Positions 1-57,080 of a stretch of 64,000 bases of DNA are shown piece by piece. Made by a program: the position numbers and the translations under genes. This DNA comes from an uncultured Candidatus Saccharibacteria bacterium (lineage in GTDB: Bacteria > Patescibacteriota > JABMPQ01 > JAQVVF01), in contig CAZNOH010000002.1 of NCBI GenBank assembly GCA_964574655.1, forward strand, positions 108,596 to 172,595. Reading direction: 5' to 3'. Positions within the stretch are counted from its first letter, which is position 1. Each line of letters starts with the position of its first letter. Below the pieces are notes generated by a model, which had not been told where the DNA came from, did not search any database, and was given only the letters and a program-made list of their open reading frames with translations.

Positions 1-468
1 ACATCAAAACCAGTTACTGATAGTCAACCTGGTACTGACCAACCCGGCACTGGCCAGTCAACAGCCGGTACTGTTTGTACTTGTAATAATAATGATACTG
101 ATTCAAGTAAAGATAAAGTTGGTTGCGACACTTTTTGCCAAGGTCAAGGACGTAATGGGGTTAAAACTTTCACACCGCCACAACAAGGCCCTGGACAACA
201 AATATCGGGAACCAGCATCACCAATCCAATCGGAGTTAGTTCGCCGATGGAATTAATCCAAAAAATAATAAATTATGTTTTAGGTATCGTTGGCGCTGTA
301 GCAGTTTTGATTATTATCTATTCAGGCTTTGTCTATATGACATCTCGTGGTAATGAAAAGCAAATAGAATCCGCAAAAAATTCTCTTACTTATGCAATTG
401 TAGGGTTAGTTGTGATTTTTGCTTCAATTATTATTGTTAATGCAGTTATATCGGCTATTGGAGGATAA
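1..468 (+). CDS. 3' part of a larger secreted protein ending in a VirB2/TrbC-like (CPR T4SS-pilin type) two-helix membrane module; 5' end lies outside the window
   Basis: Frame 1 is open from nt 1 to the stop at 466-468. The last ~70 aa carry the IYSGFVYMTSRGNEKQIESAKNSLTYAIVG motif shared with the four downstream pilin genes. The upstream part is Gly/Pro/Thr/Cys-rich. Confidence 0.6.
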   Translation, partial: TSKPVTDSQPGTDQPGTGQSTAGTVCTCNNNDTDSSKDKVGCDTFCQGQGRNGVKTFTPPQQGPGQQISGTSITNPIGVSSPMELIQKIINYVLGIVGAVAVLIIIYSGFVYMTSRGNEKQIESAKNSLTYAIVGLVVIFASIIIVNAVISAIGG

Positions 469-490
469 GAAATAATAATTTTCAATAACC

Positions 491-593
491 AATTTCCAAT
501 TTACAATAAATTTTCAATTCTCAATTTTCAAACTCGAACGGAAAAGGGCTCATTGGAAATTGAGAATTGAAAATTTATTGTAAATTGGAAATT
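491..593. repeat. long inverted repeat: ~37-bp near-perfect arms (aatttccaatttacaataaattttcaattctcaattt / rc), ~29-nt loop with a GC core (aactcgaacgg)
   Basis: Read directly: 491-527 pairs with 557-593. It belongs to the caattt/aaattg word subfamily, also seen at 57081-57217. Confidence 0.85.
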
Positions 594-613
594 GTAAATT
601 ATAACAAAATTAT

Positions 614-1039
614 ATGAAAAAAATATCAATTTTCGTTGCAACATTATTAACAAGTCTTATAACATTTCAAGTAGTCTTTGCAAAATGGGGCCTTGAAAAT
701 TTAGCTGATACAGGCTTGCCACAAGACACACCAGGTGCATTTATCGCTAGAATAGTTAGTTACGCCCTAGGTTTTATTGGCATTATTTTAATAGTAATGA
801 TTATTTACGGCGGATTTTTGTATATGACAGGAGGAGGCAATGAAAAGCAAACAGAAACAGCAAAAAATGTCCTTACCTATGCAATCATTGGCGCTGTTGT
901 AATTTTTTCCGCTTACATTATTGCCAGACTAGTTATTTCTGCTTTGACCTCCGGAGCTACACCAGCTCCAACCACGCAGGAAACAACGCCACCAGCAACA
1001 ACATTGCCGACTACTACGCCACCGGCAACAACACCCTAG
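614..1039 (+). CDS. VirB2/TrbC-like T4SS pilin-module protein with a Thr/Pro-rich C-terminal tail
   Basis: Signal peptide MKKISIFVATLLTSLITFQVVFA. Two hydrophobic helices flank the loop YMTGGGNEKQTETAKNVLTYAIIG. The C-terminus is TPAPTTQETTPPATT. Confidence 0.7.
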   Translation: MKKISIFVATLLTSLITFQVVFAKWGLENLADTGLPQDTPGAFIARIVSYALGFIGIILIVMIIYGGFLYMTGGGNEKQTETAKNVLTYAIIGAVVIFSAYIIARLVISALTSGATPAPTTQETTPPATTLPTTTPPATTP

Positions 1040-1075
1040 TCTAGTCAATTTTAGTCCGTCAATCAAAGTTCTAGT

Positions 1076-1834
1076 TTGCAACAATTAAAAAGAATGTTTA
1101 AAAAAATAATTTTCATTTTCTTATTTATCTTAGTTTTGGGTAACTTATTAGTTCCTCATTTTTCTTTTGCTCAATATGGCTTAGAAGAGGGTCAAAAAAT
1201 TCAAGGATTATCACAAAGCGCGCCAGAAATATTCGTTGGCAGAATAATAAAGGCAGTATTATTAGTTATTGGCGTTATTTTGATAGTCTTAATAATCTAT
1301 GGCGGTTTTACCTATGCGACAGCAATGGGGAACGAACAAAAAATTGAAACAGGCAAAAAAATACTGGTTTACGCTATCATTGGCACGATCATAATCGCTT
1401 TAGCATACGCAATTACTACTTTAGTCATTAATGTTTTATTTCCAAAAGACAAAACAGGAACAACACAAACTCAAGATCCAACAAAAACCGAAGGCCAAGG
1501 GCAAGGCCTTAAGGATCTTCCGGGCTCAAACATGACCATTGATCCTTTTTCTGAAGAAACATGCGTAAAAGTAGGCGAAAAATGTCTTTTTTCTCCGGAA
1601 GCTTCAGTCGAAGATGGAACATTGCATGTTCAAGGCGCAACACCTGCTAATATTTGTTGTAGCGGCCTAGATTGCAATCTCAGCACTCAAACCTGCGTCA
1701 AAAAATGCGCTAATAATGGTGAAAGCTTTGTTAGAGAAACATTAACCAAAAGAGAATATATCCCTTGTTGTTCAGCTGATTTAGTCAGAAACACAGATCT
1801 AAGCAATCCGATATGCTATAAACCAAAATTATAG
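1076..1834 (+). CDS. pilin-module protein with a C-terminal Cys-rich (about 14 Cys) extracellular extension
   Basis: Signal peptide plus IYGGFTYATAMGNEQKIETGKKILVYAIIG motif, then a Cys-rich domain (CVKVGEKC...CCSGLDCN...CVKKC...CCSADL...CY). Confidence 0.65.
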   Translation: MQQLKRMFKKIIFIFLFILVLGNLLVPHFSFAQYGLEEGQKIQGLSQSAPEIFVGRIIKAVLLVIGVILIVLIIYGGFTYATAMGNEQKIETGKKILVYAIIGTIIIALAYAITTLVINVLFPKDKTGTTQTQDPTKTEGQGQGLKDLPGSNMTIDPFSEETCVKVGEKCLFSPEASVEDGTLHVQGATPANICCSGLDCNLSTQTCVKKCANNGESFVRETLTKREYIPCCSADLVRNTDLSNPICYKPKL

Positions 1835-1873
1835 CATATAGCAAAGCCATGATTTTTAATTCTTGATGAATTT

Positions 1874-2278
1874 ATGAATATAGTAAAGAACATAAAAACA
1901 ATATTAATTTGTCTAGTCATATTTTTTAGTTTTCAGATGTTATTGCCAGCACAAGTCTTTTCAGCCGACGATACAGGTGTTCCCGAAATAAATCAACAAA
2001 TGGAGGAATTTGGTTCAACAACTCCAGTCTCAACAGCAGATCTTCCAACATTCGTTGGCAGAATAATAAAATGGGTTATACTAATCATCGGCGTTATTCT
2101 AATCACAGTGATTATTTATGGAGGATTGACCTATGCTACTGCTGCTGGGAGCCAAGAAAAAACAGAGTCAGCCAAAAAGATTTTAGTTTATGCTATAATT
2201 GGTGTGATCATCATTGCCTTGGCCTATGTTCTGACTGATTTTATTATCAATGCTTTATTTGAATCTAGGTCTACATAA
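1874..2278 (+). CDS. VirB2/TrbC-like T4SS pilin-module protein
   Basis: Signal peptide, then IYGGLTYATAAGSQEKTESAKKILVYAIIGVIIIALAYVLTDFIINALF. Confidence 0.7.
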   Translation: MNIVKNIKTILICLVIFFSFQMLLPAQVFSADDTGVPEINQQMEEFGSTTPVSTADLPTFVGRIIKWVILIIGVILITVIIYGGLTYATAAGSQEKTESAKKILVYAIIGVIIIALAYVLTDFIINALFESRST

Positions 2279-2416
2279 AATCCTAAGCTCAAAATCCTAA
2301 AATTCCTAATGTTCAAAACATGGCAATCAATTTATTAGTTATTTAGAATTTTGAATTTATTTAGAATTTTGGATTTAGGATTTAGTATTTTAATTTTAAG
2401 AAAGGGGGTGATAGAA

Positions 2417-2803
2417 TTGACAAAAATATTTGCAAGCATAGCGATCTGCGCAATACTAGTATTATGTGTTGCTCCAGTTTTGGCTGCTCCAGCAAGATCA
2501 AATCCTGGTGATTCAGGACCGCAGAATGCTTTGGAAAACCTTAGAAATGAAGCCAATTATACCACCACTGATTTAATAACATTCATTGGTAGAATCATTA
2601 AATGGGTATTGGGAATAATCGGTGTAGTTATGATTGCTTTATTCGTTTACGGCGGTGTTACATACGCAACTTCAGCTGGTTCTGAAGAAAAAATTGAGAA
2701 TGGTAAGAAAATTATGGTTTACACAATCATTGGTGTTATCATAATTGCTTTGGCATATGTTCTGACAGACTTCATTATTTCAGCTTTATTCCCAACATTC
2801 TAA
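2417..2803 (+). CDS. VirB2/TrbC-like T4SS pilin-module protein (probable TTG start after a strong SD)
   Basis: SD aaagggggtga is followed by in-frame TTG at 2417. Signal peptide LTKIFASIAICAILVLCVAPVLA. Motif VYGGVTYATSAGSEEKIENGKKIMVYTIIG. The track ORF starting at 2351 is probably over-extended. Confidence 0.65.
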   Translation: MTKIFASIAICAILVLCVAPVLAAPARSNPGDSGPQNALENLRNEANYTTTDLITFIGRIIKWVLGIIGVVMIALFVYGGVTYATSAGSEEKIENGKKIMVYTIIGVIIIALAYVLTDFIISALFPTF

Positions 2804-2832
2804 GGCATAATAAAAATATATTTTTATTCAAG

Positions 2833-2868
2833 ACAGGCCACTATCAATTTAGCGAGCCTGTTTTTATT
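2833..2868 (+). terminator. intrinsic terminator hairpin (acaggc...gcctgt plus T-run) after the pilin array
   Basis: Stem 2833-2838 / 2856-2861 followed by ttttatt. Confidence 0.5.
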
Positions 2869-2988
2869 ATGGTAAAATATAATACGAATACGAGTACGAA
2901 TGATGCGAATGATACAAATTACGAATCGACGCATTCGTAATTCGCAATATTCGCATTATTCGTATTGTCATTCGTATTATATTTAGAC
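2869..2988. repeat. intergenic palindromic element, tacgaat/attcgta word subfamily
   Basis: aatacgaatacgagtacgaatgatgcgaatg...acgaatcgacgcattcgtaattcgcaatattcgcattattcgtattg. It shares ttcgcattattcgta and the terminal cattcgtattat with the copies at 32420-32556 and 57887-58020. Confidence 0.8.
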
Positions 2989-4650
2989 ATGTTCAAAAAA
3001 CAGCCCATAATATTAGCAATGGCCATAATTATTTACGTAGCATTTTTCACAATGTTATGTTTTTTGAAATACGACAATTTTTTATATCAAGAATTAGATT
3101 TAGGCATAATTAATCAAGTTTTTTACAATTTAGCAAACAATATTTCATTTTACTCGGCAATACAAAATCAAAGCTATCTTGGCGACCATTTTTCGCCAAT
3201 CATCATTATATTATTGCCATTTTATTATTTTTTTCAAAGTCCAAAAACATTATTGATTTTGCAGACTATTATTTTAAGTTTAGCAGCAATTCCAATCTAT
3301 CTGATTGCAAAAGAAAAACTCAAAAACAAAAATCTAGCACTAATTGCCGGTCTAATTTTCTTAGCTAATCCAGCATTGCATAGCGTTAATTTATATGAGT
3401 TTAGTTTTTTGTCTTTTGCCGTTTTTTTATTGCTAGTTACATATCATTCATTCCAGAAGAAAGTGTTTTCTTATTTTCTTGTTTTCTTATTGCTATGTTT
3501 GCTAGTTCGTGAAGATCTCGCTCTAATTATATTCATGTTTGGAATCTATGCTTTATTAAAAAAACGCCAACTAAAATGGATTCTGCCACCAATGATTATA
3601 AGCATTATTTACTTTATTTTAAGTTTAAAAATAATTAGTTATTTTAATGTTGATAATAGTTACAAATTTATAATTCACTATTCATGGCTGGGGAATAGCA
3701 TCAGGGATTTATTCATTAATTTTTTTCTAAAATTTCCAGATATCTTTTTACACTTTCTAAATTTAGAAAACATAATATTTATTTTATACTTATTAATTCC
3801 AGTTTTTTTCTTACCAGTTTTTGGAAAAAAGACGCTTATATTTTTTATTCCAATTCTACTCCAATTTGGCTTGGCAAATTCTGGATTTAAAGGCATCTTT
3901 TTTACTCATTATCTATCATTATTTGTTCCATTTATTTTTATATCCGCAATCTATGGTGTTTCTCTAATTCTATCTCCAATACGTCTAATGCCATCTCGAA
4001 TTCAGTCATCAAAGATTTATAAGAAAATTTGTTTTGGTAAAATAAAAATAAATTTAGGCAGAAAAGAATACATTTTAATTTTATTTCTATTAATTTTTAT
4101 AACAATTTCTAGCAATATTGGTTTTAGTCCCTCATACAATTTGCCCAAAAAGCTAATAAAAGTTGATTCAGAAAAAGGTAAAAACAAACAAAATCTAGTT
4201 GATGAAATTCCAAAATGCCGATGCTCTAAAAATTACATTTTAGCCACAAATGATTTCTTGCCAGTCTTATCTAACAACGAAAATTTATACTCAGCTTTTT
4301 ATTTGGTAAAAGGAAAAAAGCAATATTCAAATCAGGATTATGATATTCCAAAATTAAATTATGCTTTAATCAATTATGAGCAATTTATTAAGAGCTGTCA
4401 GAATCAAGAAAATTTATCGCAGAATAAAAACATTTGTAAACAGGCAAAAAAGAGATTAAAAAATGTATTATTGCAAAACAAGCTTTCGCCAAAAAAAATA
4501 ATTGAAAATAATGTTTTATATTCTAGCAATTATCAATCTGAAAAAACATTTCAATCTTTGCAAAAAAAAGAATCAGATATTATCATTAATCTAAGCAAAA
4601 AGAAATATAATGTTATGCTTGACGAATCATCATTAGAAATTGAAAATTAA
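2989..4650 (+). CDS. polytopic membrane protein, DUF2079-like (putative GT-C-type envelope glycosyltransferase)
   Basis: At least 10 hydrophobic segments. N-terminal motifs LDLGIINQVFYNL and YLGDHFSPIIIILLP resemble the DUF2079 family. ATG 2989 is preferred because the upstream TTG start lies inside the palindromic element. Confidence 0.5.
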   Translation: MFKKQPIILAMAIIIYVAFFTMLCFLKYDNFLYQELDLGIINQVFYNLANNISFYSAIQNQSYLGDHFSPIIIILLPFYYFFQSPKTLLILQTIILSLAAIPIYLIAKEKLKNKNLALIAGLIFLANPALHSVNLYEFSFLSFAVFLLLVTYHSFQKKVFSYFLVFLLLCLLVREDLALIIFMFGIYALLKKRQLKWILPPMIISIIYFILSLKIISYFNVDNSYKFIIHYSWLGNSIRDLFINFFLKFPDIFLHFLNLENIIFILYLLIPVFFLPVFGKKTLIFFIPILLQFGLANSGFKGIFFTHYLSLFVPFIFISAIYGVSLILSPIRLMPSRIQSSKIYKKICFGKIKINLGRKEYILILFLLIFITISSNIGFSPSYNLPKKLIKVDSEKGKNKQNLVDEIPKCRCSKNYILATNDFLPVLSNNENLYSAFYLVKGKKQYSNQDYDIPKLNYALINYEQFIKSCQNQENLSQNKNICKQAKKRLKNVLLQNKLSPKKIIENNVLYSSNYQSEKTFQSLQKKESDIIINLSKKKYNVMLDESSLEIEN

Positions 4651-4653
4651 TTT

Positions 4654-6246
4654 ATGTTAAGTAGCATTACGAAAAAAGAATGGCTCGTAGTTTCATTAAT
4701 TGCTTTAATAACAATTACTATTGTTATTGCGCCATATTTATTTGGCTATTTTACTACTCCTCAAAACATGATTTTTACTGGCGTTACTTTTGATCAGGAT
4801 TATTCCTATTTCTCCATGATGGAGCAAGCAAAAGAAGGAAAAATACTATTCAAAAATCTTTATACGTCAGAAGACCATCAGGCAATTTTTTTCAGGCCGT
4901 TGTTTTTATTTATGGGGCTATTTGCAAAATTTTTGCATCTGTCCAATTTTTTTGTTTTCCATTTATTTAAAATAATTTTTGTTGCCATTTTTATATTTTT
5001 GGCTTACAAGTTCATCTCAATCTTCTTTAGCGAAAAAATAAATCGCATAATTTGTTTGATAATTCTTCTATTTTCATCAGGTTTTGGTTTTTTAGGGCAG
5101 AGATTATTTAGTTATCTATCAACAGATCTTTGGATACCAGAATCACAGACCTTTGCTTCATTTTTCACTCAGCCTCATTTTGTTTTATCGCAAATTTTAA
5201 TTCTAGTTTGTTTTATTTGTTTATTAAAGAAAGAGCTTCGTTTTGCTCTCTTGGCAGGTCTGGCAAATTTTATTTTAGGTTTAGAGCATCCATTCGATTT
5301 GCCTGTCACGCTTTTAGTCCCATTTATTTATTTCATAATTTTATTCTTCTGGAAAAAAGAAAACAGAATTATGAATTATCTAATTTATTGCGCTATCTCA
5401 GTCGTACCAGTTATCTATCAATATTGGACAATGAAGATTGAGCCTATTGCCAAAGCCTGGAATGATCAAAACATTTTGAAATCGCCAGAAATTTTAGCCT
5501 GGATAGTCGGTTATGGCATCATCACAATCTTTGCAATTATTGGTTTCTTAAAATTTTTCAAAAATAAAAATAAAAATTTATTATTAATTAATATTTGGGC
5601 AATTGTTAATGTCTGTTTGCTATATTTGCCAGTCAATTTTCAAAGGCGAATGTCTGAAGGCTTGCATATTCCCTTGACTATTTTGGCAACTTTCGGTATT
5701 CTCATGGTTTATAATTTTTTGAATAAAAAAAGCATTAAGCACAAAATTCACACCCATATTCCAAAGATTGCTTTTTTATGGGTAATCGCTTTATCTCTGC
5801 CTTTTAGCAATATAAATCGCGTTGCTAATTATTTCAATAATTATGCTAAAGCAAAAGCATTGCCTTATTATTTCAGCCAGGACTTTTTTCAAGCTACAAA
5901 ATACTTTAACGACAATAAAATATTTGATCAAACAATTTTGGCTTCGCAAAAAAATGGTCCATTCATTTCAGGTCTGACAACAAACAGAGTTTATCTTGGA
6001 TTTGTTTTTCAGACCAAAGATTATTCTATCAAAAAAGATACTGTTGCATGGTTCTTCAAAGATAATCAGAAAATTAAACAAAAACAAGAATTTTTGCAGA
6101 AGAGAAATATCAAATATATCTTGTACGGTCCAGAAGAAAAAAAGCTTGGCAAAATTAATTTAGACAAAAAAGACTTCTTGGAAAAAGTCTATCAGAATGG
6201 TAGTTATGCTATTTACAAGATAAATGACAAAAAAACAAAAACTTAA
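4654..6246 (+). CDS. polytopic membrane protein with a C-terminal soluble domain (GT-C-like glycosyltransferase candidate)
   Basis: Many transmembrane segments followed by a hydrophilic ~150-aa tail. It lies 4 nt after the previous gene. Confidence 0.45.
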   Translation: MLSSITKKEWLVVSLIALITITIVIAPYLFGYFTTPQNMIFTGVTFDQDYSYFSMMEQAKEGKILFKNLYTSEDHQAIFFRPLFLFMGLFAKFLHLSNFFVFHLFKIIFVAIFIFLAYKFISIFFSEKINRIICLIILLFSSGFGFLGQRLFSYLSTDLWIPESQTFASFFTQPHFVLSQILILVCFICLLKKELRFALLAGLANFILGLEHPFDLPVTLLVPFIYFIILFFWKKENRIMNYLIYCAISVVPVIYQYWTMKIEPIAKAWNDQNILKSPEILAWIVGYGIITIFAIIGFLKFFKNKNKNLLLINIWAIVNVCLLYLPVNFQRRMSEGLHIPLTILATFGILMVYNFLNKKSIKHKIHTHIPKIAFLWVIALSLPFSNINRVANYFNNYAKAKALPYYFSQDFFQATKYFNDNKIFDQTILASQKNGPFISGLTTNRVYLGFVFQTKDYSIKKDTVAWFFKDNQKIKQKQEFLQKRNIKYILYGPEEKKLGKINLDKKDFLEKVYQNGSYAIYKINDKKTKT

Positions 6247-6355
6247 AAAACAAACAAAACACAAATAACAAAAAACAAACTATAATTCAAAGTTTGTTTT
6301 TTTTGTAGTTTGTAATTTGGAATTTGTTTGTTTTTTGTCTTTTTGTAATTTTATT
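6247..6355. repeat. intergenic palindromic element, acaaaca/tgtttgt word subfamily
   Basis: aaaaacaaacaaaacacaaataacaaaaaacaaact...agtttgttttttttgtagtttgtaatttggaatttgtttgttttttg. Same subfamily as 31454-31597. Confidence 0.75.
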
Positions 6356-6358
6356 TTT

Positions 6359-7945
6359 TTATTTCAGTTTATAAATTCTGCAATATTTTGAATCAAATAC
6401 TTTTTCAAATCTATCATCATCATTAAACATACTAAAAACTTTCTTATTCTTATTATTAACTAAAACATAATTAGATTTAAAGTCGTTTTTTATAGTCAAA
6501 TAAGCATCATCTTCTTCTTTTGAAATATTTTGCCATTTATTATACAAATCCAGATTATAATTATAAGTAAAAGTAGGGTCTAAGCCAAAGCCATAATAAT
6601 TTTCACTATTATTCAAAAATAATGGTGGAAAATCGCTCCAATCTAGATTCAAAATAATAGTATTTTTGGGTGTATTATTTTTAATCCAAAGAGCAGCTTT
6701 CTCTAAATCTGGCACATTTTTGGCCGAAGAATTGCCAATGCTGGCTTGTGCAGAAATCATATTGCTTACCCCAATAGAGATGATAGCAACTAAAACAAAA
6801 AGAAAAGCAAAAGACTTAAAAAATAAAAGAAAATATTGTTTTAGCCATGTTCTAATAGAATAAAAATGTTGTTTATTTTCTAAGACAATCAAAATTTGCT
6901 TAAACCATTTTTGATAATCTATTCTCTCCAATAAATCGCTCAAACAAAAAGCGCCAAAAAGTAAACAAAGAGGAACCATTAATTCAACAAATCTTTGTGA
7001 TCGCAGAGTCAAAGCAAAAAACAAAGTTGAAATAACAAAAAGAGTTATTTTAAAAGCAAATAGCTCTTTTTTTATTTTGTATTTTTTCAAAATAATATCT
7101 ATTATCAAAACAACAATTCCAGCAACATATGCGACAACTGCTAAAAAATTATTGGTCAAAAAATCCCAATCTTTGAACGGAGACCATTCTGCCCCAACTG
7201 GAATTTTTGTAAATGGCCCAGTTCCCAAAACTTGAATTTTCAAAAAAGAATAGAAATTTCTAGCATAGGGATTAGTCAAAATACTTAAAACAATTGCGCC
7301 TAAACAAATCAATATTTCTTTCCATTCAAATCTTTTTACAAAAATTAATCTAGTTAAATAAAAAATAAAAGCAAAAATAATTAAAAATATAAAACCGCCA
7401 TATAGCCAAACATAAAAGAAAGAAAACAAGGCAATCAAAAAATATTTCAGCCATTTAATTTTAAAATCATAATAAAAGCTAAACAAAATCATAATCAAAA
7501 AAAACAAAGATAAGGCAGGCACGCGGATCAAAATCATTCTAAACAAAAAAGAGCTTGAACTAAACAATAATAAAATCGCCCACCAAAAAGAAAAAGAAAT
7601 CTTATTTTTTTCTAGAATTAAATAAAAAGCCAGAACAGCTAAAGACGCAAACAGAATATCAGCAATCTTTGCGCCAATTATTGGATCTATTGCAACGAAA
7701 GGGATTAACAGAATATGAAACAAAAAATGATGATCAACGTAATGATCTTTCAAGGTAGAGAATTGCATCCACGGAAAATCTTGAAAAACAAATTTTCCGT
7801 CAATCATCATCTCCGTAATTTTGACATGATAATAAGAATCAGGACACAAAAATAATTCCAGCGAAAATTGCAGAATAGAAAAAACAGTTACAGCAATTAA
7901 GAAAACTAAAATATACTTTAAAATTTTGAAATTTCTTTGTTTCAT
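6359..7945 (-). CDS. polytopic membrane protein, ArnT/PMT-like GT-C glycosyltransferase candidate
   Basis: 12+ hydrophobic segments and a C-terminal periplasmic-type domain. Family assignment is by architecture only. Confidence 0.45.
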   Translation of the reverse strand: MKQRNFKILKYILVFLIAVTVFSILQFSLELFLCPDSYYHVKITEMMIDGKFVFQDFPWMQFSTLKDHYVDHHFLFHILLIPFVAIDPIIGAKIADILFASLAVLAFYLILEKNKISFSFWWAILLLFSSSSFLFRMILIRVPALSLFFLIMILFSFYYDFKIKWLKYFLIALFSFFYVWLYGGFIFLIIFAFIFYLTRLIFVKRFEWKEILICLGAIVLSILTNPYARNFYSFLKIQVLGTGPFTKIPVGAEWSPFKDWDFLTNNFLAVVAYVAGIVVLIIDIILKKYKIKKELFAFKITLFVISTLFFALTLRSQRFVELMVPLCLLFGAFCLSDLLERIDYQKWFKQILIVLENKQHFYSIRTWLKQYFLLFFKSFAFLFVLVAIISIGVSNMISAQASIGNSSAKNVPDLEKAALWIKNNTPKNTIILNLDWSDFPPLFLNNSENYYGFGLDPTFTYNYNLDLYNKWQNISKEEDDAYLTIKNDFKSNYVLVNNKNKKVFSMFNDDDRFEKVFDSKYCRIYKLK

Positions 7946-10118: not shown

Positions 10119-11039
10119 TCAATAAACAACATATTCAATGGCGAAGCCTCCGGAATTATCCTCCCACCACTCGGGATGGAAGTGATTCTCCCTGTCAGCT
10201 GTCGCCTCATTTACGGTCATAAGAATGTTGGCATCCTCGTTACCTGCATTTGCGACTTCACAGCCGTTTCCGCAGTACTGCCAAGGCCCAGGATTAACCT
10301 TGACACACAACGCTAGCCAACTTCCTCCGCATCTATACTGTCTGCCGTCTCGAAGCCAGAGCGGAGGATCAATTCCCCTTGGTCCGCTATTCAAGTCAGC
10401 CATCAAATCCCTTACCTTGCCACTTGCGCTGATCTTCATCTTCTGACCAGCCTTGAGCTTCATTGGCAAGGTAATGCCAGCGTAGTTGGGAGCTACGAAT
10501 GTAGTCTCCTCTCCAGGCTCATGCATCATCTGCTGGAACGGCGAAGGTTGAAGATTGAGACCCTTCTTTTCCAGTTCTTCTCTGCCGCCCTCTCCTTGAA
10601 CCAGTTCTGTTCCATCTTCGGAGCAGAATTTCGTGCCAAGAGAGAACTCTCTTCCGCACATTGGACAAACGGCTTTCACCGATTTCCCAGTCTTAGTATC
10701 AAAGAGTTGCCCCTTGCCCGAGGCAATGGAGACAGGCTTAATGAATGAATAGGGCAGGAAGAACTTGGAAATGCCGATCAAGCAATAGAAGCAGACCGCA
10801 ATCACCACGCCAGTCTTGATATAAGTCTGAGTGATGATCAGGTGCTTCAGAAAAAAATAGACGACGCCGAAGCAGAACAGGAACCCGATTGGTCCAGCCA
10901 GATAGCTGAACCACGAGCCCTTGCCAGTCTGCCAGTCAACAATCGCAACAATAACACGCAATACAATCAAAACCAGAATTGCTGCAACGAAGAGCAGGCC
11001 TTTAGCCTGGCTTCGTTGCTTTTTTGTCATCTTGGCCAT
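10119..11039 (-). CDS. membrane protein (3 TM) with a central zinc ribbon (CPMCGREF...CSEDG) and a Cys/Trp-rich C-terminal domain
   Basis: The N-terminus has hydrophobic helices and the middle has a CxxC-x11-CxxDG ribbon. GC elevated. Confidence 0.55.
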   Translation of the reverse strand: MAKMTKKQRSQAKGLLFVAAILVLIVLRVIVAIVDWQTGKGSWFSYLAGPIGFLFCFGVVYFFLKHLIITQTYIKTGVVIAVCFYCLIGISKFFLPYSFIKPVSIASGKGQLFDTKTGKSVKAVCPMCGREFSLGTKFCSEDGTELVQGEGGREELEKKGLNLQPSPFQQMMHEPGEETTFVAPNYAGITLPMKLKAGQKMKISASGKVRDLMADLNSGPRGIDPPLWLRDGRQYRCGGSWLALCVKVNPGPWQYCGNGCEVANAGNEDANILMTVNEATADRENHFHPEWWEDNSGGFAIEYVVY

Positions 11040-11059
11040 TTCATCCTCCCATATGTTTG

Positions 11060-11695: not shown

Positions 11696-11753
11696 GTTTC
11701 TCCTCCTCGTATTGTGAAGTTTCTTGCCAAATCTTGGACTTTGTAGTATAGCA

Positions 11754-11782
11754 TATGAGCATAAAAAAGTCAATGCAAAATA
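11754..11782 (-). promoter_or_regulatory. near-consensus sigma70 promoter (TTGACT-N17-TATACT) for the GC-rich operon
   Basis: The reverse complement reads ttgacttttttatgctcatatgctatact. This puts a TSS about 50 nt upstream of ATG 11695. Confidence 0.55.
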
Positions 11783-12010: not shown

Positions 12011-12014
12011 ATGT

Positions 12015-49455: not shown

Positions 49456-51846
49456 TTGACGCAAAATATTACGCAGAAATACGTTGAAAAAAATAGCCAT
49501 ATCAATTTGTTAAAAAATAAAGCAAAAATTAAAAAAATACTAATTATTGCAATCTCGCTTGCTTTGATTTTAATACCAACTATTTTTGTTTTTGCGCAAG
49601 GAGCTAGCACACCAACTCCTGAGGGAGCTGGAGCTATCGGAGGAGGTGTTTTGTGGTTGGTGAATTTAATTGTTGGTGGCCTTTGCTACATTTCCGTGGC
49701 AGTGATTTCCTTATTCTTATGGTTGATTGGTACAATCTTTGATTGGATTATTGGTGGCACAACAATAAATGCCAGCGCCATGAATGAAATCGTCACAGCC
49801 GGCTGGGTTATTGTTCGAGACATTCTTAACATTATTTTTGTTCTAGCATTATTAGGAATTGCTTTTGCTACAATCCTAAGAATTGAGTCGTATCATTTTA
49901 AGGCTTTATTGCCAAAATTATTAGTCGCTGCCTTATTAGTTAATTTCAGCAAGACAATTGCTTTAACATTGGTTGATTTTTCAAACGCCATCATGAGCGG
50001 CATAATGGGAACGCAAAATGGCGCCACAGCTTCTGCTTCGCTTTTAGCCTTATTTAATATTTCGAACTTTTTTGAGCTAAGCGCCGTTTTAGGCAAACAG
50101 CTGACTGTATCAAGCACTGAGCCTGCAGTATTGGCAACAAACGTCGCAATTGTAATGTTTTTGGCTATGTTCACGATGGCTTTGGCAGGATTAGCAGTCT
50201 TATTAGTTATCCGTACTGTTGTTTTAATGATTTTAACAGTTTTCTCGCCAGTTGCTTTTGTTTTAAATGTATTGCCAGTAACACAAAAATACGCTTCAAA
50301 ATGGTGGGAAGAATTTACAAAATATTTATTTGTTGGACCAGTAGTTTGTATTTGTTACCTTTTAGCTTTACTTTTTGCTGTCAAATTCTCGCAAGGTGGC
50401 GGTATGCAGGGTCTTAGTAACAATCTCACCTCGCAAGCTTCAAGCAATGTTGGCATGTCTGCAGGCACTATCGGTCAATTTTTTGGTCTAGCCATTGCTT
50501 GTGGAATTATGTTTGTCGGATTTACTTTTGCCAAAGAAGCTGCCGGCGGTCTTGCTGGAGCAGCGATGGGATTAGTGAAAAAGGGATTGTTAGGAGCCGG
50601 TGCCTTGGCTGGTGGATTTGCTTGGAGAAAAGGAAATGAGTCGTTGGCTAGCGGTTCAAAAGGCGCGCTAGGCAGGCTTACTTCTTTAATTGGACAAAAA
50701 GTCTTCAGACGTTCGGCAGAAAAATCTGACAAGTTTGCTGATAATACAAAATTATTAAGTCCAACAGTGCTTGCTGGAATGTGGAAAGAAAGACAAGCTA
50801 TCAGAACATCTAGAGCTATGTCAGGCGCAGCTGGTTTTGCTCATAGCAAATTTAATAAGATTACTAATCGGCTATGGGGTATGGGCGAAGATACAGCTGA
50901 TTATGAACGCCGAGGCCAGCTTGAATCTGTTGATCATCATATGGCAGAAGGAAAGAAATATGGCAAGGGTAATCATTCATATTATCGAAAAGAGCAACGC
51001 GAGGCTTTAGAAAGCAAAGATTACGACAAGGCAGAAGCCATGGACAATTTACTTGCCCAAGATGGCAATATAAATGAAGCGCATAGAGAAGAGGAATTGG
51101 GTAGCAATGTTTCTAACTTTGAATATGATGAAAATGGGGATCCAATAAAAGATTCTGCAGGAAATGCAATTAAAATTCCAGAGAGACAAATTGGAAAAGA
51201 TGCAAGTGGAAAACCAATTATGGTCGGTGGCAATGTTCGAAGCTTTAATAAGGAAGCCTATATAGATCGTTTGATTACCACTTTTGGCAAAAAGAGAGGT
51301 ATTGAAATTATGGCTGGTCAAAACGAGAGTCATCGAAGAAATGGCAACTGGGCTTTTGCCGAAATTGTCGATGTAGATGAAAAAGGGGAATTAAAAATAA
51401 ATGCAAAACAAGCAGACAATTCTGCTGGAGAATGGAATAAAAAAGCAGGCCGGCAAGGTTTGGATGGACAAAGATTTCCACTGTTCAAGGAAAGCTATGG
51501 CACCGATGGCAGTGTAGTTGATGTCCAAGTTGATCCAGTGCTTATAGCAAAAATCAAAAATTCTGGTATTGGCGAAGACTGGACAAAGAATATCGGTTTT
51601 GCGCCTGATGCCAACAAGAGAATGCTAAATCAATTTAGAGGAAAATTGTACAAACAAATACAAGATACTGCCATGCCTCAGTCACATAAGGATTCCGCCG
51701 TAAAAATGATTCAAGCGGCAGTAAAAGCAACCGGCGGGGCAGGAAAGGCTGTCCATTATAAAGGAGTTAAAATGACTTCTGATGAGCTAGATGCCGAAAT
51801 TGATTTTGATGCAATTCTACCTCCAACGCCACCTCCAACGCCTTAA
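49456..51846 (+). CDS. polytopic membrane protein with a long hydrophilic C-terminal region; VirB6/TrbL-like T4SS channel candidate
   Basis: About 8 hydrophobic segments in the first 400 aa, then a 400-aa soluble tail. Its position at the head of the VirB3/VirB4 cluster is why I suggest VirB6. I see no sequence motif I can name. Confidence 0.4.
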   Translation: MTQNITQKYVEKNSHINLLKNKAKIKKILIIAISLALILIPTIFVFAQGASTPTPEGAGAIGGGVLWLVNLIVGGLCYISVAVISLFLWLIGTIFDWIIGGTTINASAMNEIVTAGWVIVRDILNIIFVLALLGIAFATILRIESYHFKALLPKLLVAALLVNFSKTIALTLVDFSNAIMSGIMGTQNGATASASLLALFNISNFFELSAVLGKQLTVSSTEPAVLATNVAIVMFLAMFTMALAGLAVLLVIRTVVLMILTVFSPVAFVLNVLPVTQKYASKWWEEFTKYLFVGPVVCICYLLALLFAVKFSQGGGMQGLSNNLTSQASSNVGMSAGTIGQFFGLAIACGIMFVGFTFAKEAAGGLAGAAMGLVKKGLLGAGALAGGFAWRKGNESLASGSKGALGRLTSLIGQKVFRRSAEKSDKFADNTKLLSPTVLAGMWKERQAIRTSRAMSGAAGFAHSKFNKITNRLWGMGEDTADYERRGQLESVDHHMAEGKKYGKGNHSYYRKEQREALESKDYDKAEAMDNLLAQDGNINEAHREEELGSNVSNFEYDENGDPIKDSAGNAIKIPERQIGKDASGKPIMVGGNVRSFNKEAYIDRLITTFGKKRGIEIMAGQNESHRRNGNWAFAEIVDVDEKGELKINAKQADNSAGEWNKKAGRQGLDGQRFPLFKESYGTDGSVVDVQVDPVLIAKIKNSGIGEDWTKNIGFAPDANKRMLNQFRGKLYKQIQDTAMPQSHKDSAVKMIQAAVKATGGAGKAVHYKGVKMTSDELDAEIDFDAILPPTPPPTP

Positions 51847-53458: not shown

Positions 53459-53893
53459 ATGCAATACCCAATTCCACAATTTGTTGAAATAGAGGACCAG
53501 ATTATTGGCCCGCTCACTCTCAAACAGTTTTTCTTTTTGCTTGGTGGTGGAATATTTCTATTGATTTCCTGGTCTTTTGTTGATCTCGCATTATTTATTT
53601 TTTTAGCAGTTATCGTTGGTTTCATAGTCGTGCCATTGGCTTTTGTCAAGCCATACGGACGTCCGTTGACAAATTATCTTTCCGCAGTTTTTAAATATAT
53701 ACTTGGCCCAAAGATACTAGTCTGGCACAAAAGTAGCAGAGCTCCAAGAGTAAAAGCTTATGATCTTGCAAATAAAAAGAAAGGTCCTGAAAAAATTACA
53801 ATCGGCGAAAAAAAGTATACACCGAGCAGTATTCACCGATTGGCAAGGCAATTAGATTTTAAGACAGTAATGAGCGAAGACGAAAAGAAGTAA
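53459..53893 (+). CDS. PrgI-family / VirB3-like small T4SS membrane protein
   Basis: MQYPIPQFVEIEDQIIGPLTLKQFFFLLGGGIFLLI, then a second TM. This matches the PrgI-family N-terminal signature and precedes VirB4. Confidence 0.55.
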   Translation: MQYPIPQFVEIEDQIIGPLTLKQFFFLLGGGIFLLISWSFVDLALFIFLAVIVGFIVVPLAFVKPYGRPLTNYLSAVFKYILGPKILVWHKSSRAPRVKAYDLANKKKGPEKITIGEKKYTPSSIHRLARQLDFKTVMSEDEKK

Positions 53894-55244: not shown

Positions 55245-57080
55245 ATGCAAGATAAAGACTTACCAATCGGTAAAAAAAATATTGAAAATATAAGTCAAGC
55301 CGAGCAAGAAGAGATTCTTAAGGCTGAAGAAATTTACAGAAAGGGTCTGGTTTCGATTCGCGATATTATTGCGCCAAGTGCTTTGCAAGTCAATCCAAAT
55401 TATCTTAAATTAGGTGATAAGTTCGTCAGAACTATATTCATTTTTACTTATCCTCGTTTTGTCAATACTGGCTGGTTTGCTCCAGTCATTAATATGAATA
55501 TTGAAGCTGATATGGCAATGTATATTTCACCTGTTGAATCAGAAAAAATATTAAAAACATTAAAAAATAAAGTAGGACAAATTCAGTCAACTATTGCCGG
55601 AAAACAGGAAAAAGGTGATGTCCGAGATCCAATGCTAGAAACAGCATTAAATGATGTTGAAGAACTTCGTGATCGTTTAATTCAGGGCACAGAAAGATTT
55701 TTCCATTTTGCATTATATATCACTCTTTATGAGAATTCTGAAAAAAAACTAGATAAAACCACCAAAGAAATAGAGGATCTATTAGGTCAAAGACTGATCT
55801 ATTCAAAGCGAGCATTTTTTCAAGCTGAACAAGGATTTAATACCACAACGCCATTAGGTCTTGACGAGCTTGGCGTTCTTAACAATTTTAATACTTCACC
55901 TTTATCAACTAGTTTTCCATTTGTTTCTTCGGAATTGACTTCTGATGAAGGCATTCTTTATGGAATCAACCGCCACAATAATAGCTTGATTTTATTTGAT
56001 CGTTTCTCCTTGCCAAATGCCAATTCAGTAGTATTCGCCACATCTGGTGCTGGTAAAAGTTACGCCGTTAAATTAGAAATATTAAGGTCTTTAATGTTTG
56101 GTACAGAAGTTATAGTCATTGATCCAGAAAATGAATATAAATATTTATGTGAATCAGTCGGCGGAACATTTTTGAAAATGTCTCTAGAGTCAGAATACAG
56201 ATTGAATCCTTTTGATCTGCCATCTGCAATTTCTGGAATGAAAACCAAAGATATTATTCGGTCAGCAGTTATTAATATAAAAGGTTTGCTTAGAATTATG
56301 CTTGGTCGTTTGACAAAAGAAGAAGATGCTTTGCTTGATAGCGCAATTATTCAAACTTACGCCAAAAAAGATATAACTCCAGATTCTGATTTATCAAAAA
56401 TAGAAGTTCCAACAATGAAAGATTTGCAAGAAATTCTTGAAGGCATGCAAGGAGCAGAAGACATTGTTCCAAGAATAAAAAAATATACAGAAGGAACTTT
56501 TGCCGGTCTTTTGAATCAGGCAACCAATGTCCAAATTGACAATCCATTTGTTGTTTTTAGCATTAGAGATTTAGAGGACGAGTTACGTCCAATTGCCATG
56601 TATGTTATTTTAAATCACATCTGGAATATCGTCAGAGCTCAAATGAAAAAAAGAATTCTAGTTGTCGATGAAGCATGGTGGATGATGCAATATGAAGAAT
56701 CAGCCAGATTTATGTATGGCATTGCCAAAAGAGGAAGAAAATATTATCTAGGCACAACAACAATTTCTCAAGATGTTAATGATTTCTTAACATCAGATTA
56801 TGGAAAAGCAATCGTAACAAATTCCGCATTGCAATTGTTATTAAAGCAGTCTCCAGCCTCTATTGATTTATTAAAAAAAACTTTTTATTTAACTGAAGAA
56901 GAAAAATATTTATTATTAGAATCAGATGTTGGTGAAGGAATTTTCTTTGCAGGTTCAAAACATGTTGCAATAAAAATAGTTGCCTCATATTCTGAAGATC
57001 AGATTATTACAACAGATCCAAAACAATTACTAGAGCTAGAACAGGCTAAGAAAAATTACGAAGAAGAGCAAAACGCATAA
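55245..57080 (+). CDS. VirB4/TrbE-family T4SS ATPase, central and C-terminal ATPase part (split gene, part 2)
   Basis: IIAPSALQVNPNYLKLGDKFVRTIFIFTYPRFV, Walker A FATSGAGKSYAV, Walker B ILVVDEAWWMM. Confidence 0.65.
   Translation: MQDKDLPIGKKNIENISQAEQEEILKAEEIYRKGLVSIRDIIAPSALQVNPNYLKLGDKFVRTIFIFTYPRFVNTGWFAPVINMNIEADMAMYISPVESEKILKTLKNKVGQIQSTIAGKQEKGDVRDPMLETALNDVEELRDRLIQGTERFFHFALYITLYENSEKKLDKTTKEIEDLLGQRLIYSKRAFFQAEQGFNTTTPLGLDELGVLNNFNTSPLSTSFPFVSSELTSDEGILYGINRHNNSLILFDRFSLPNANSVVFATSGAGKSYAVKLEILRSLMFGTEVIVIDPENEYKYLCESVGGTFLKMSLESEYRLNPFDLPSAISGMKTKDIIRSAVINIKGLLRIMLGRLTKEEDALLDSAIIQTYAKKDITPDSDLSKIEVPTMKDLQEILEGMQGAEDIVPRIKKYTEGTFAGLLNQATNVQIDNPFVVFSIRDLEDELRPIAMYVILNHIWNIVRAQMKKRILVVDEAWWMMQYEESARFMYGIAKRGRKYYLGTTTISQDVNDFLTSDYGKAIVTNSALQLLLKQSPASIDLLKKTFYLTEEEKYLLLESDVGEGIFFAGSKHVAIKIVASYSEDQIITTDPKQLLELEQAKKNYEEEQNA

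Follow-up and report, generated by a model that had tools for sequence, protein, structure and literature searches.

The locus at the start of the 64 kb stretch of DNA analysed here (the window) raises the question of whether its run of small membrane-protein genes encodes pilins assembled by a T4SS, and what the additional domains carried by several of them, and the membrane proteins encoded downstream, may contribute.

Five pilin-module genes in tandem

Five consecutive ORFs, all on the + strand, were found in positions 1–2803, as a sequence-only reading of this DNA had described, and each encodes a pilin module scoring above the cut-off of the Pfam family T4SS_pilin (PF18895).

<1..468, + strand: g1, pilin-module gene running in from outside the window; 155 codons of its 3' part visible
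614..1039, + strand: g2, 141 aa; signal peptide, pilin hairpin and 31-residue Thr/Pro-rich C-terminal tail
1094..1834, + strand: g3, 246 aa; signal peptide, pilin hairpin, Thr/Gln linker and ~90-aa 10-Cys domain
1874..2278, + strand: g4, 134 aa; minimal, signal peptide and hairpin
2417..2803, + strand: g5, minimal pilin-module protein

The ORF of g3 itself opens at TTG 1076, and the ATG at 1094 was used as the start. The g5 ORF opens at 2351; judged from the sequence, the start is probably TTG 2417, which lies 8 nt past the Shine-Dalgarno-like run AAAGGGGG, and the g5 orthologue o5 begins at the equivalent position. No terminator was detected on the + strand from g1 to M530, a membrane-protein gene further downstream. 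The five genes make up the 3' portion of a conserved, operon-like VirB2/T4SS_pilin array on the chromosome of an ultra-small Patescibacteria (CPR) bacterium.

Pilin family and hairpin topology

The gathering score of PF18895 (26.6 bits) was passed by all five proteins (g1 54.6, g2 44.9, g3 34.3, g4 43.0 and g5 48.5 bits; E 1e-8 to 1e-14), bearing out the proposed pilin family. A match to the TrbC model had also been expected, and this part held for g1 only (TrbC/VirB2, PF04956; 29.2 bits vs 27.9 GA). Similarly, NCBIfam model NF045849 gave 43 bits for g1 against a cut-off of 40, and 27–35 bits over the full model for g2–g5. Solved VirB2 or TraA pilins were not matched by sequence using a profile of 70 modules.

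A cleavable signal followed by a single TM helix had been named as the outcome that would count against pilins, but g2–g5 were each found to have an N-terminal signal-like hydrophobic segment and two TM helices (segments 4–20, 42–58 and 86–102 in g2), and the pilin identity stood. The AlphaFold (AF2) model of g3 includes a helical hairpin (residues 49–82 and 87–121), and in each product the loop connecting the helices is short and Lys/Glu-rich. The loop motif YGG-x-T/Y-x-T-x-x-G-N/S-E-x-K...K-K/N is common to the 70 modules, with the Gly invariant and the Thr and Lys near-invariant. The module motif as first written is strictly fitted by g3–g5 but only loosely by g1 and g2.

An HMM built from the modules of g1–g5 found exactly six copies in a six-frame translation of the 64 kb, with E-values of 1e-37 to 1e-41 for the array genes and 1e-11 for a sixth copy, which is embedded, as had been claimed, in the VirB1-like protein encoded at 61559–63208; the best non-module match had an E-value of 0.4. 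It is scarcely credible that these are unrelated small membrane proteins that resemble the pilin models by composition. The models are short and hydrophobic, and many weak matches to unrelated membrane families occur in the same scans, but all five proteins exceed a curated cut-off, the shared loop motif is not hydrophobic, and the HMM separates the six copies from everything else in the 64 kb. Spurious similarity was rejected on these three results.

Payloads and a portable module

The payloads attached to the module differ between the genes. A large N-terminal domain had been attributed to g1, and the part of it that can be seen is the last 74 residues, the gene being cut by the window edge. 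Thr, Gly, Gln and Pro are abundant in this visible region, which has a single 4-Cys CxC...CxxxC motif, and the module is C-terminal; the orthologue o1 (in locus L001), of 315 aa, has three such 4-Cys repeats. The Thr/Pro character of the g2 tail was confirmed (13 Thr and 8 Pro among 31 residues), as was the minimal form of g4 and g5, which have no payload. The g3 domain was said to be a knot-like domain with 14 Cys. However, the actual count is 10, all invariant across seven homologues that all begin MFKK, and AF2 gave pLDDT <50 over the Cys domain, for which a knot or other fold could not be modelled. A search among 1.84 billion representatives found this domain only in its own family. The Cys-rich domains fused to the pilin module appear to be lineage-restricted. 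Disulfide-rich payloads are consistent with an extracytoplasmic position. The termini of the pilin are on the outside of the F-pilus filament (PMC5018250), and N- or C-terminal additions would therefore be exposed.

Elsewhere in CPR, the module was found at the head of 600–3457 aa proteins with Big_5/TIG Ig-like domains, and repeated 2–3 times inside single ORFs in three loci (L043, L062 and L065). The VirB1-like protein, with the order GDSL, pilin module, SLT, retains the module in 6/6 true homologues (P0130–P0135; 48–52 bits). The earlier suggestion of a portable anchor or display scaffold is thus supported, with fusions to Cys-rich domains, Thr/Pro tails, cell-wall enzymes and Ig-like giants.

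Old paralogues or antigenic variants

The array had been proposed to be antigenically variable, in which case the paralogues would be alternative, fast-diversifying forms of the pilus, with switching or exchange between them serving to escape recognition or to suit different hosts. Module identity among the five is 31–67%, their exposed parts differ, the linkers and tails also vary between orthologues, and tandem VirB2 genes in Bartonella and Anaplasma have been interpreted in this way, an interpretation extended to Patescibacteria (PMC12102498). However, a syntenic array is present in L001 and L003 in which every gene from g1 to g5 has a 1:1 orthologue with 64–80% identity (71% for o1, 64% for o2, 73% for o4 and 80% for o5), and even the most similar paralogues are further apart than any orthologue pair. 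As 1:1 orthologues are retained at this level in related genomes, antigenic variation is argued against. The payload types are also kept across genomes (the 10 invariant Cys in g3; the Cys repeats in g1 and o1), and the most similar modules are those of adjacent genes, as expected of old tandem duplication. DNA identity between the copies is just 60–70%, with no near-identical tracts found that could serve gene conversion, and no silent cassettes or truncated silent copies were found, each array gene being complete with its own signal peptide. We consider antigenic variation very unlikely; the orthology shows all five to be old paralogues, each retained in its own right.

Membrane proteins encoded downstream

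Three genes for polytopic membrane proteins follow the array, the first on the same strand as g5 and 161 bp downstream of it.

2965..4650, + strand: DUF2079 membrane protein (PF09852, 204 bits), predicted GT-C glycosyltransferase fold
4654..6246, + strand: M530, polytopic membrane protein, distant homologue of M528
6359..7945, - strand: M528, polytopic membrane protein, distant homologue of DUF2079 and M530

The DUF2079 protein is predicted to carry a GT-C fold from its AF2 model (pLDDT 91.3, pTM 0.92). When this model was compared with the PDB using Foldseek, the best 23 matches were all GT-C enzymes (E down to 2.9e-6), including STT3, PglB, AglB, ALG9, DPY19 and ArnT, with the protein-glycosylating STT3, PglB and AglB ranked first; the TM-scores are moderate (0.37–0.49). 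Across 98 DUF2079 sequences, residues D45, H75, Y87, Q100 and E183 do not vary. No sequence match to solved GT-C enzymes was found, and a WWDYG-type motif is absent.

All three neighbours had been described as GT-C-like. This is supported for DUF2079, the only one of the three with a family match, by its modelled fold, and M530 and M528 are tied to it by profile-profile comparison only, through which they may be distant GT-C-like relatives. Using hhalign, M528 matched DUF2079 (86%, E 5e-6, 341 columns) and M530 (97.4%, E 1.3e-11). D36 of M528, which follows TM1, is invariant. No Pfam family was matched by M528 or in 10 family members of M530, and M530 gave a sub-threshold match to STT3 (E 0.3).

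A conserved cassette around the arrays

The gene order around the array is that of a cassette consisting of an NTP-transferase gene, an SBP_bac_1 gene, the pilin array, and DUF2079 with its two distant homologues. GT-C-like genes were found downstream of 22/46 arrays and upstream of 0/54, and an SBP gene was upstream of 25/57. Where both flanks were visible (n=40), 17 arrays had both SBP and GT-C genes and 18 had neither. In many CPR loci a DUF2079 homologue immediately follows the pilin array, and homologues of M530 (25–35% identity) are also found downstream of arrays; in L005, L006, L007 and L009, those of M528 are located 51–136 bp past the final pilin gene. When DUF2079 homologues were chosen regardless of pilins, 5/6 had a pilin array upstream. 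These data support a pilin-glycosyltransferase linkage that is preserved, with its direction, in distantly related CPR lineages, and is stronger than the simple adjacency first noted. Streamlined CPR genomes can keep gene order without a direct functional link.

Glycosylation of the pilins by the GT-C enzymes of the cassette is a supported hypothesis, drawn from this synteny and the modelled fold. The exposed tails are 30–38% Ser+Thr+Pro, against a background of 16%, but as this richness is similar whether or not an array has GT-C neighbours, the tail test lends glycosylation no specific support.

The T4SS gene cluster

Genes related to T4SS components were found in the distal part of the window.

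49456..51846, + strand: candidate VirB6-like channel subunit, 796 aa, ~9 TM segments
53459..53893, + strand: PrgI/VirB3-like T4SS component (PF12666 PrgI, 35.9 bits)
55245..57080, + strand: VirB4-type ATPase (PF19044, 92.1 bits; PF03135 CagE_TrbE_VirB, 25.9 bits; Walker A at residue 265)
61559..63208, + strand: VirB1-like protein; signal peptide, GDSL/SGNH at 43–193, hairpin at ~252–319, SLT at 380–431

The VirB1-like protein matched PF01464 (40.4 bits), PF13472 (30.4 bits) and PF18895 (26.6 bits, equal to GA), and its hairpin (nt 62312–62515) scored 39.5 bits with the HMM from g1–g5 and 55.2 bits with a broader module HMM. The 796-aa protein had no Pfam match; its homologues co-occur with VirB4 beside pilin arrays in six Saccharibacteria loci (L062, L065, L067, L068, L070 and L076), and in Saccharibacteria loci arrays adjoin VirB4. 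The VirB4 gene encodes the cluster's only identified ATPase domain of a T4SS family, and VirB5, VirB11 and VirD4 homologues were not found in scans of the cluster ORFs. It lies ~52 kb from the array and not 45 kb as had been given.

The cassette was without VirB4 in every locus examined, and arrays adjacent to VirB4 were without the cassette, including its SBP and GT-C genes. This, together with the ~50 kb gap to the T4SS genes, indicates that coupling of the array to the T4SS is indirect. A surface coat independent of the T4SS would fit the same pattern. The hairpin would then be only a two-helix membrane anchor, not polymerised by the T4SS, and the NTP-transferase, SBP, hairpin proteins, GT-C enzymes and PGI would make an envelope glycoprotein/glycan layer. 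Retention of the cassette as a unit, the distance from VirB4, and the lack of a sequence match to solved pilins are in keeping with a coat, as are module fusions to enzymes or Ig-like giants and ORFs with 2–3 copies, which are hard to fit into pilus packing. However, all five proteins score above the cut-off of T4SS_pilin (and g1 above that of TrbC), the same module occurs in the VirB1-like protein of this genome's own T4SS cluster, the minimal g4 and g5 have nothing to anchor, and the Saccharibacteria arrays in the literature are essential and sit within T4SS clusters. A coat of this kind is considered rather unlikely.

Proposed assembly and glycosylation

The preferred reading, to which we give moderate confidence as a whole, is that the array encodes pilins that are assembled by the T4SS, display the payloads and are glycosylated by the downstream GT-C enzymes. 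From the topology and the F-pilus structure, Sec export and signal cleavage would leave the hairpin ends and payloads facing outward and the loop in the cytoplasm. VirB2 is known to be extracted by VirB4 and recruited by VirB3 and VirB6. Here, a monoderm-type T4SS (VirB3/PrgI, VirB4, the VirB6-like protein and the hairpin-bearing VirB1-like enzyme) would pull the hairpins out of the membrane to build a pilus or a stalk-like structure on the cell surface, with g4 and g5 as bulk subunits and the payload paralogues as sparse or terminal subunits that present binding domains to the host cell. A 90-aa domain or 3000-aa adhesin would be difficult to accommodate in a helical filament of the VirB2 type if every subunit bore one. 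DUF2079, M530 and M528, given the conserved synteny and the fold, may glycosylate exposed Ser/Thr/Pro-rich segments on the outside of the membrane using lipid-linked sugar donors. The upstream NTP-transferase could supply activated sugar, and the upstream SBP_bac_1 protein may be a carbohydrate-binding partner.

Relationship to known systems

The VirB2/TrbC/TraA pilins of diderm T4SS likewise pass from a signal peptide to a two-helix hairpin with a basic loop and form a membrane subunit pool, and their VirB3, VirB4 and VirB6-type partners are also present in this genome. However, only g1 passes the TrbC model and solved pilins are unmatched by profile, the present host is monoderm and has no outer-membrane core complex, classical VirB2 has no known large fused domains, and polymerisation here is putative. 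The Mbov_0395 family of Mycoplasma ICEs (NF045849) is also a small two-helix pilin-like protein, found in monoderm, wall-less hosts with MPF-FATA-type conjugation, but it is single-copy, located in a mobile element and without payload, whereas the present array is chromosomal and multi-copy with only g1 above the cut-off. Divergent tandem virB2 copies with proposed surface variation are likewise known in Bartonella and Anaplasma phagocytophilum (cited in PMC12102498), but these are diderm intracellular pathogens in which variation is read as immune evasion, whereas the present paralogues are individually conserved across genomes.

A pilin-glycosylating GT-C enzyme is encoded beside its pilin in the Pseudomonas aeruginosa group IV pilA-tfpW locus (bioRxiv 10.1101/2020.04.19.049825), where, as here, a pilin gene is immediately followed by one for a GT-C-fold membrane glycosyltransferase. 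The same chemistry is predicted, namely transfer from a lipid-linked sugar to Ser/Thr in the exposed part of the pilin, taking place on the outside of the cytoplasmic membrane. However, the TfpW substrate is a type IV (T2SS-related) pilin and not VirB2-type, TfpW and DUF2079 have no sequence relation, and the present locus has three GT-C-like genes and several candidate substrates. With the GT-C systems (STT3/PglB/AglB, PMT, DPY19, ArnT), DUF2079 shares the predicted fold and, in its first outward-facing loop, an Asp that does not vary, but differs in the sequence features noted above, and its activity is putative. Three-component extracytoplasmic systems combine a polyprenyl-phosphate GT2, a flippase and a GT-C enzyme; a GT2 gene was also found among the GT-C genes in L087, and a GT87 gene in L084.

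Arrays of tandem VirB2-like pilin genes are known from Patescibacteria, with 441 arrays of 2–11 genes published (Quinonero-Coronel et al. 2025, PMC12102498). They resemble the present one in family (PF18895/PF04956), phylum and tandem same-strand divergent genes, and in both cases the genome has a monoderm-type T4SS without relaxase. The essential pilin series of Southlakia epibionticum is part of its T4SS cluster (Wang et al. 2023, PMC10633639), whereas the present array is ~50 kb away in a separate cassette. The combination of pilins, sugar-binding protein and GT-C-fold glycosyltransferases is apparently undescribed; the text of PMC12102498 contains neither 'glycosyl' nor 'DUF2079' and does not mention the cassette. 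The stability of the array paralogues and the portability of the module also appear to be new, the payload fusions and 1:1 paralogue orthology described here not being described there, and module identity within the present array reaches 67%, compared with a maximum of 54% in that study.

The tandem genes encode T4SS pilin-family proteins

The presence of a five-gene array on the forward strand at the start of the window (positions 1 to 2803) was confirmed, and its members are referred to here as g1 to g5:

g1: + strand, ORF of 155 codons in frame 1, start cut by the window edge
g2: 614 to 1039, + strand, ORF
g3: + strand, ORF opening at TTG 1076, start at ATG 1094, where MFKK is the N-terminus of all homologues
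g4: 1874 to 2278, + strand, ORF
g5: + strand, ORF opening at 2351, start most likely TTG 2417, as this matches the orthologue start and a AAAGGGGG run lies 8 nt before it

Successive genes are separated by 145, 36, 39 and 72 bp. A scan revealed no + strand terminator from g1 to M530, and promoter matches were uninformative, the DNA being AT-rich.

All five products scored above the gathering threshold (26.6 bits) of the PF18895 T4SS_pilin model, at 54.6, 44.9, 34.3, 43.0 and 48.5 bits for g1 to g5, respectively, with coverage ranging from positions 2–71 to 11–71 of the 71-position model, in agreement with the assignment of these genes to the pilin family in the sequence-only reading. The TrbC/VirB2 model proposed there as a second check (PF04956, threshold 27.9 bits) recovered g1 (29.2 bits), but g2 fell below the threshold (22.5 bits) and g3 to g5 gave no match at E 0.1 or better. 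The g1 product also exceeded the 40-bit cut-off of NF045849 (Mbov_0395, a Mycoplasma ICE pilin-like family) at 43.0 bits, with g2 to g5 below it at 31.5, 27.2, 33.2 and 35.4 bits. This match to a Mycoplasma ICE equivalog bears on the origin of the pilins of Patescibacteria (CPR) and on the published claim that MPF-FATA systems are without VirB2 homologues.

A hydropathy scan revealed a signal-like N-terminal hydrophobic segment in each of g2 to g5, closed by a small-x-small site (VFA/K, SFA/Q, VFS/A and VLA/A, respectively) and followed by two TM helices. In an AlphaFold model of g3, the helices form a hairpin (residues 49–82 and 87–121). As the PF18895 matches are accompanied by a signal-like segment with two TM helices, neither of the findings that would speak against a pilin (no match to a pilin model, or a signal followed by a single TM helix) was obtained.

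When a profile HMM of the five modules was run against the six-frame translation, it identified six copies in the whole 64 kb: one in each array gene (E 1e-37 to 1e-41) and a sixth, at E 1e-11, in the gene for a VirB1-like protein at 61559 to 63208. There was no seventh, the best remaining match being no better than E 0.4. The VirB1-like protein scored 26.6 bits with PF18895, exactly at the threshold, and 55.2 bits with an HMM of 70 CPR module sequences, in which the loop motif G-N/S-E-x-K...K is conserved. A search of PDB sequences with the 70-module profile returned no VirB2 or TraA chain. Matches to designed "Pizza" propellers were judged spurious, since they were built from six repeats, each of them insignificant (i-E about 600).

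Relationship to published arrays

Homologues were all from metagenome-assembled genomes of Patescibacteria. A large part of bacterial diversity belongs to this group, whose members live attached to other microorganisms, and individually conserved pilin paralogues, each with its own outward payload, would offer testable handles on how the host-contact surface is built.

A published study (PMC12102498, 2025) applied the two Pfam models used here to 3035 Patescibacteria genomes and reported 441 VirB2 arrays of 2–11 genes in 383 assemblies. Drawing on the cases of Bartonella and Anaplasma, it proposed that the arrays reflect adaptation to different hosts. The window falls within the array definition in use (at least two pilin genes in tandem, or with one non-pilin gene between them, in Patescibacteria with VirB4). 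A predicted pilin series in the T4SS cluster of S. epibionticum is essential (Wang et al. 2023, PMC10633639), and the role of the T4SS and pilin array has been described as "completely unknown", though essential in the sole species tested (PMC11665869). The core array therefore adds one more example to a kind already published; what appears new here is the combination of its cassette context with the GT-C fold of DUF2079 and with stable paralogues that carry payloads.

The paralogues are individually conserved

Module identity within the array ranged from 31 to 67%, dropping with distance along it (g4-g5 67%, g3-g4 61%, g1-g2 49%, g2-g3 49%), and DNA identity among the copies was 60–70%, indicating that the tandem duplications are old. 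No long identical DNA tracts were found between the copies, all of which are complete genes.

A syntenic array was found on a 645-kb contig of a related genome (locus L001), with 1:1 orthologues of g1 (71% identity), g2 (64%), g3 (65%), g4 (73%) and g5 (80%). All orthologue pairs were closer than any paralogue pair in this comparison, and payload types were likewise conserved between orthologues. A sixth, larger module-bearing gene lies upstream of the g1 position in L001 and in a second relative, L003, thus the window probably holds only part of the array.

The comparison across related genomes that had been suggested therefore revealed individual conservation and not turnover, and the earlier proposal of antigenically variable copies is not borne out by 1:1 orthologues at 64–80% identity and by DNA copies that are 60–70% identical and lack long identical tracts. 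Stable 1:1 paralogues with conserved payload types instead argue for sub-functionalised subunits.

Cys-rich and Thr/Pro-rich payloads

The g3 product had been credited with 14 cysteines, but 10 were counted, all invariant in the seven known homologues. Structure prediction of this protein from a 7-sequence alignment gave a modelled hairpin but a pLDDT of 49.5 for the whole model and below 50 for the Cys domain. When 1.84 billion representatives were searched exhaustively with a profile, one protein beyond the domain's own family was found: P0008, a eukaryote-like Cys-repeat protein. The common part is only a ~30-residue C-x-G-x-x-C-D-x-x-T-Q-x-C motif, and the match was considered uninformative. 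By these searches the g3 Cys domain appears to be an orphan.

Only 74 residues of the N-terminal region of g1 are inside the window, so the large Cys-bearing domain described for it can be seen in part; its L001 orthologue has 315 aa and carries a 4-Cys motif (CxC...CxxxC) three times in this region. One copy of the same motif (CxC, 10–30 residues, CxxxC) lies in the part of g1 that can be seen (residues 26–46, nt 76–138), and, besides the three in the g1 orthologue (L001 7976–8923), two g3 homologues (P0006 and P0007) each have one inserted behind the hairpin. It appears to recur as a shuffled mini-module.

The Thr/Pro tail noted for g2 was confirmed, with 13 Thr and 8 Pro in the C-terminal 31 residues. 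Array protein tails have a Ser/Thr/Pro content of 30–38% versus a background of 16%. However, this enrichment was equal whether or not an array had GT-C neighbours (p = 0.35), and tail richness therefore gives glycosylation no specific support. By eye, candidate N-glycosylation sequons were seen ahead of the g3 Cys domain (N-M-T) and in g5 (E-A-N-Y-T).

The hairpin is carried by other proteins

At least two module genes were present in 66 of 83 loci (the window and 82 fetched), with a maximum of 12 in one locus. The module was also found at the N-terminus of proteins of 600–3457 aa with Big_5 and TIG Ig-like domains and at the C-terminus of others (240–670 aa). In the VirB1-like protein, the order GDSL/SGNH esterase, hairpin, SLT lytic transglycosylase was kept in six of six true homologues, and the hairpin is the best-conserved part of the family. 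The earlier view of the module as both a pilin and a portable scaffold is supported. Its reuse to anchor enzymes and giant adhesins is a second testable handle on the host-contact surface.

A hairpin behind a signal peptide would place both enzyme domains of the VirB1-like protein outside the membrane, and we infer that their pairing recalls peptidoglycan de-O-acetylation ahead of lytic transglycosylase action. Three homologues (P0130, P0132 and P0135) have an extra Cys-containing insert.

Hairpin-headed giants of 1575–3457 aa were seen in other CPR genomes (L034 9755–19825, L061 9827–20197, L069 9836–19069, L016 9827–14551 and L027 1077–6446), their genes frequently paired side by side; both giants scanned with Pfam (L016 and L027) contain Big_5/TIG Ig-like domains. 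Some ORFs have two or three modules in series (L043 7435–8487 and 8491–9573; L062 9111–9833; L065 9102–9815).

A recurrent cassette surrounds many arrays

The array is followed in the window by genes for three polytopic membrane proteins:

2965 to 4650, + strand: DUF2079 protein
4654 to 6246, + strand: M530
6359 to 7945, - strand: M528

In CPR loci of distant relationship, homologues of these proteins recur directly behind the final pilin gene, often 51–800 bp from it, at identities of only 25–37%. In a census of 67 arrays, counting those with a flank of at least 3 kb downstream, or a comparable one upstream, at least one of the three was found downstream in 22 of 46 arrays and upstream in none of 54. 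A homologue of SBP_bac_1, preceded by an NTP-transferase gene, was located directly upstream in 25 of 57. Where both flanks were visible (40 arrays), 17 had both neighbours, though 3 of the 17 had been fetched via DUF2079 itself; 4 had SBP only, 1 GT-C only and 18 neither.

In the reverse direction, six DUF2079 homologues were chosen solely by DUF2079 similarity and contig size, and a T4SS_pilin array was found upstream in five. These five loci also contained more membrane proteins of 520–550 aa, GT87 and a GT2 among them, and then PGI. The exception was the most distant homologue (Levybacteria), which adjoins a GT2.

A cassette of NTP-transferase, SBP_bac_1, T4SS_pilin array, DUF2079 and other GT-C-like membrane proteins, then PGI, thus recurs across distant CPR lineages. 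As the NTP-transferase and SBP genes are directly upstream of the array in the closest relatives (L001 and L003), the window array probably has the same upstream content.

Cassette loci: window 1–7945; L001, L003, L005–L012, L017, L022, L023, L025, L030, L045, L048, L049, L057, L078, L083–L085, L087, L088

VirB4 was never found inside the cassette among the loci examined, and the six fetched arrays that adjoin VirB4, all from Saccharibacteria, had neither an SBP nor a GT-C neighbour. The cassette is distinct from the VirB4-linked Saccharibacteria arrays. A large array class tied to a sugar-binding protein and GT-C glycosyltransferases, and not to VirB4, provides a further testable handle. The cassette, glycosyltransferases and DUF2079 are not mentioned in PMC12102498, and in the literature searched a single paper refers to DUF2079, under its Pfam accession.

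The downstream membrane proteins

An AlphaFold model of DUF2079 (98-sequence alignment; pLDDT 91.3, pTM 0.92) was compared with the PDB using Foldseek, and ranks 1–23 were all GT-C glycosyltransferases (E 2.9e-6 to 5.9e-3, probability 1.00, TM-scores 0.37–0.49), the STT3, PglB and AglB oligosaccharyltransferases first, then ALG9, ALG12, DPY19 and ArnT. GT-C enzymes need an acidic residue in the first outward loop. In DUF2079, D45, right after TM1 (helix 8–39), is invariant in the 98 sequences, and Lys11-Lys12 before TM1 suggest that the D45 loop faces outward. H75, Y87, Q100 and E183 are also invariant, and D74 and D184 are conserved.

Profiles of DUF2079, M530 and M528 found nothing significant among PDB sequences, and Pfam searches of all M530 and M528 family members gave no consistent family. 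Using hhalign, M528 was related to DUF2079 (86%, E 5e-6) and M530 to M528 (97.4%, E 1.3e-11), with a weak relationship between M530 and DUF2079 (21.6%). D36 of M528 is invariant after TM1.

Of the three neighbours described earlier as GT-C-like, DUF2079 is therefore well supported by the fold of its model, M528 is plausible through its alignment with DUF2079, and M530 is plausible only by transitivity through M528. This gives DUF2079 and two unannotated membrane-protein families a probable fold and a class of candidate substrates. At positions 427–471 of the M530 profile, two distinct STT3 sequences gave sub-threshold matches (E 0.3 and 3.4), which were not relied on; the equivalent region of yeast Stt3 we take to lie near the WWDYG motif.

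Possible assembly and glycosylation

The array proteins would be Sec-exported with both hairpin ends probably facing outward, hence N- or C-terminal payloads would be displayed. VirB2-like subunits would be recruited by VirB3 and VirB6 and extracted by VirB4, the minimal g4 and g5 being natural candidates for bulk subunits and g1 to g3 for display subunits that are sparse or terminal. Exposed Ser/Thr/Pro-rich segments of the array proteins would be glycosylated by the GT-C enzymes, which are best placed for this. The closest precedent is TfpW, a GT-C enzyme encoded beside a type IV pilin, which it arabinosylates. The idea of pilin glycosylation is strengthened as a hypothesis.

A broader model, put forward tentatively and with the odds somewhat against it, is that non-Saccharibacteria CPR use the cassette of NTP-transferase, SBP_bac_1, hairpin array, DUF2079 and other GT-C-fold enzymes to make a VirB2-type filament or coat on the surface that is glycosylated. 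The hairpin would be a general module by which adhesins and cell-wall enzymes are exported and displayed, with assembly possibly uncoupled from the classical T4SS cluster. If so, this would be the first instance in which dedicated GT-C protein glycosyltransferases modify pilins of the VirB2 family. The main rival is that the hairpin may serve only as a membrane anchor in a T4SS-independent surface-glycan or glycoprotein cassette. This stays alive because the cassette never includes VirB4, tail enrichment is not linked to GT-C neighbours and the payloads are bulky, a VirB2-type helical lattice being a poor fit for large payloads.

The T4SS cluster and other genes in the window

The window is chromosomal, carrying IF-2, RNase Y, KsgA, UvrD, PFK and PGI. 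The T4SS cluster includes:

49456 to 51846: candidate VirB6-like (extended) protein, 796 aa, ~9 TM segments, no Pfam match
53459 to 53893: PrgI/VirB3
55245 to 57080: VirB4, sole T4SS-family ATPase domain detected in the cluster
61559 to 63208: VirB1-like protein (GDSL, hairpin and SLT)

The 796-aa protein is considered a VirB6-like candidate as its homologues in Saccharibacteria loci accompany VirB4 and pilin arrays. VirB4 is ~52 kb from the array, further than the 45 kb given previously for the ATPase cluster, and VirB3/PrgI, VirB4 and the VirB6-like candidate are all 47–52 kb away.

A gene for a 23S_rRNA_IVP (PF05635) four-helix-bundle protein is located between PrgI and VirB4 (53957–54313). 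A 40%-identical copy lies between the g2 and g3 orthologues in L001 (9557–9934) and in L002, where the window has a gap of 36 bp, and this looks like a sporadically inserted small gene. A GC-rich island (10119–11875, - strand; 48% versus about 32%) beside tRNA-Leu (12014–12098) is due to two zinc-ribbon-containing ORFs, one with long Ala/Pro/Asp low-complexity runs, and had no Pfam or Rfam matches. The 746-aa protein encoded at 17693–19933 combines an OB-fold nucleic-acid-binding domain with three lamin-tail domains (LTD), and may be a DNA-binding or nuclease-type protein that acts outside the cell.
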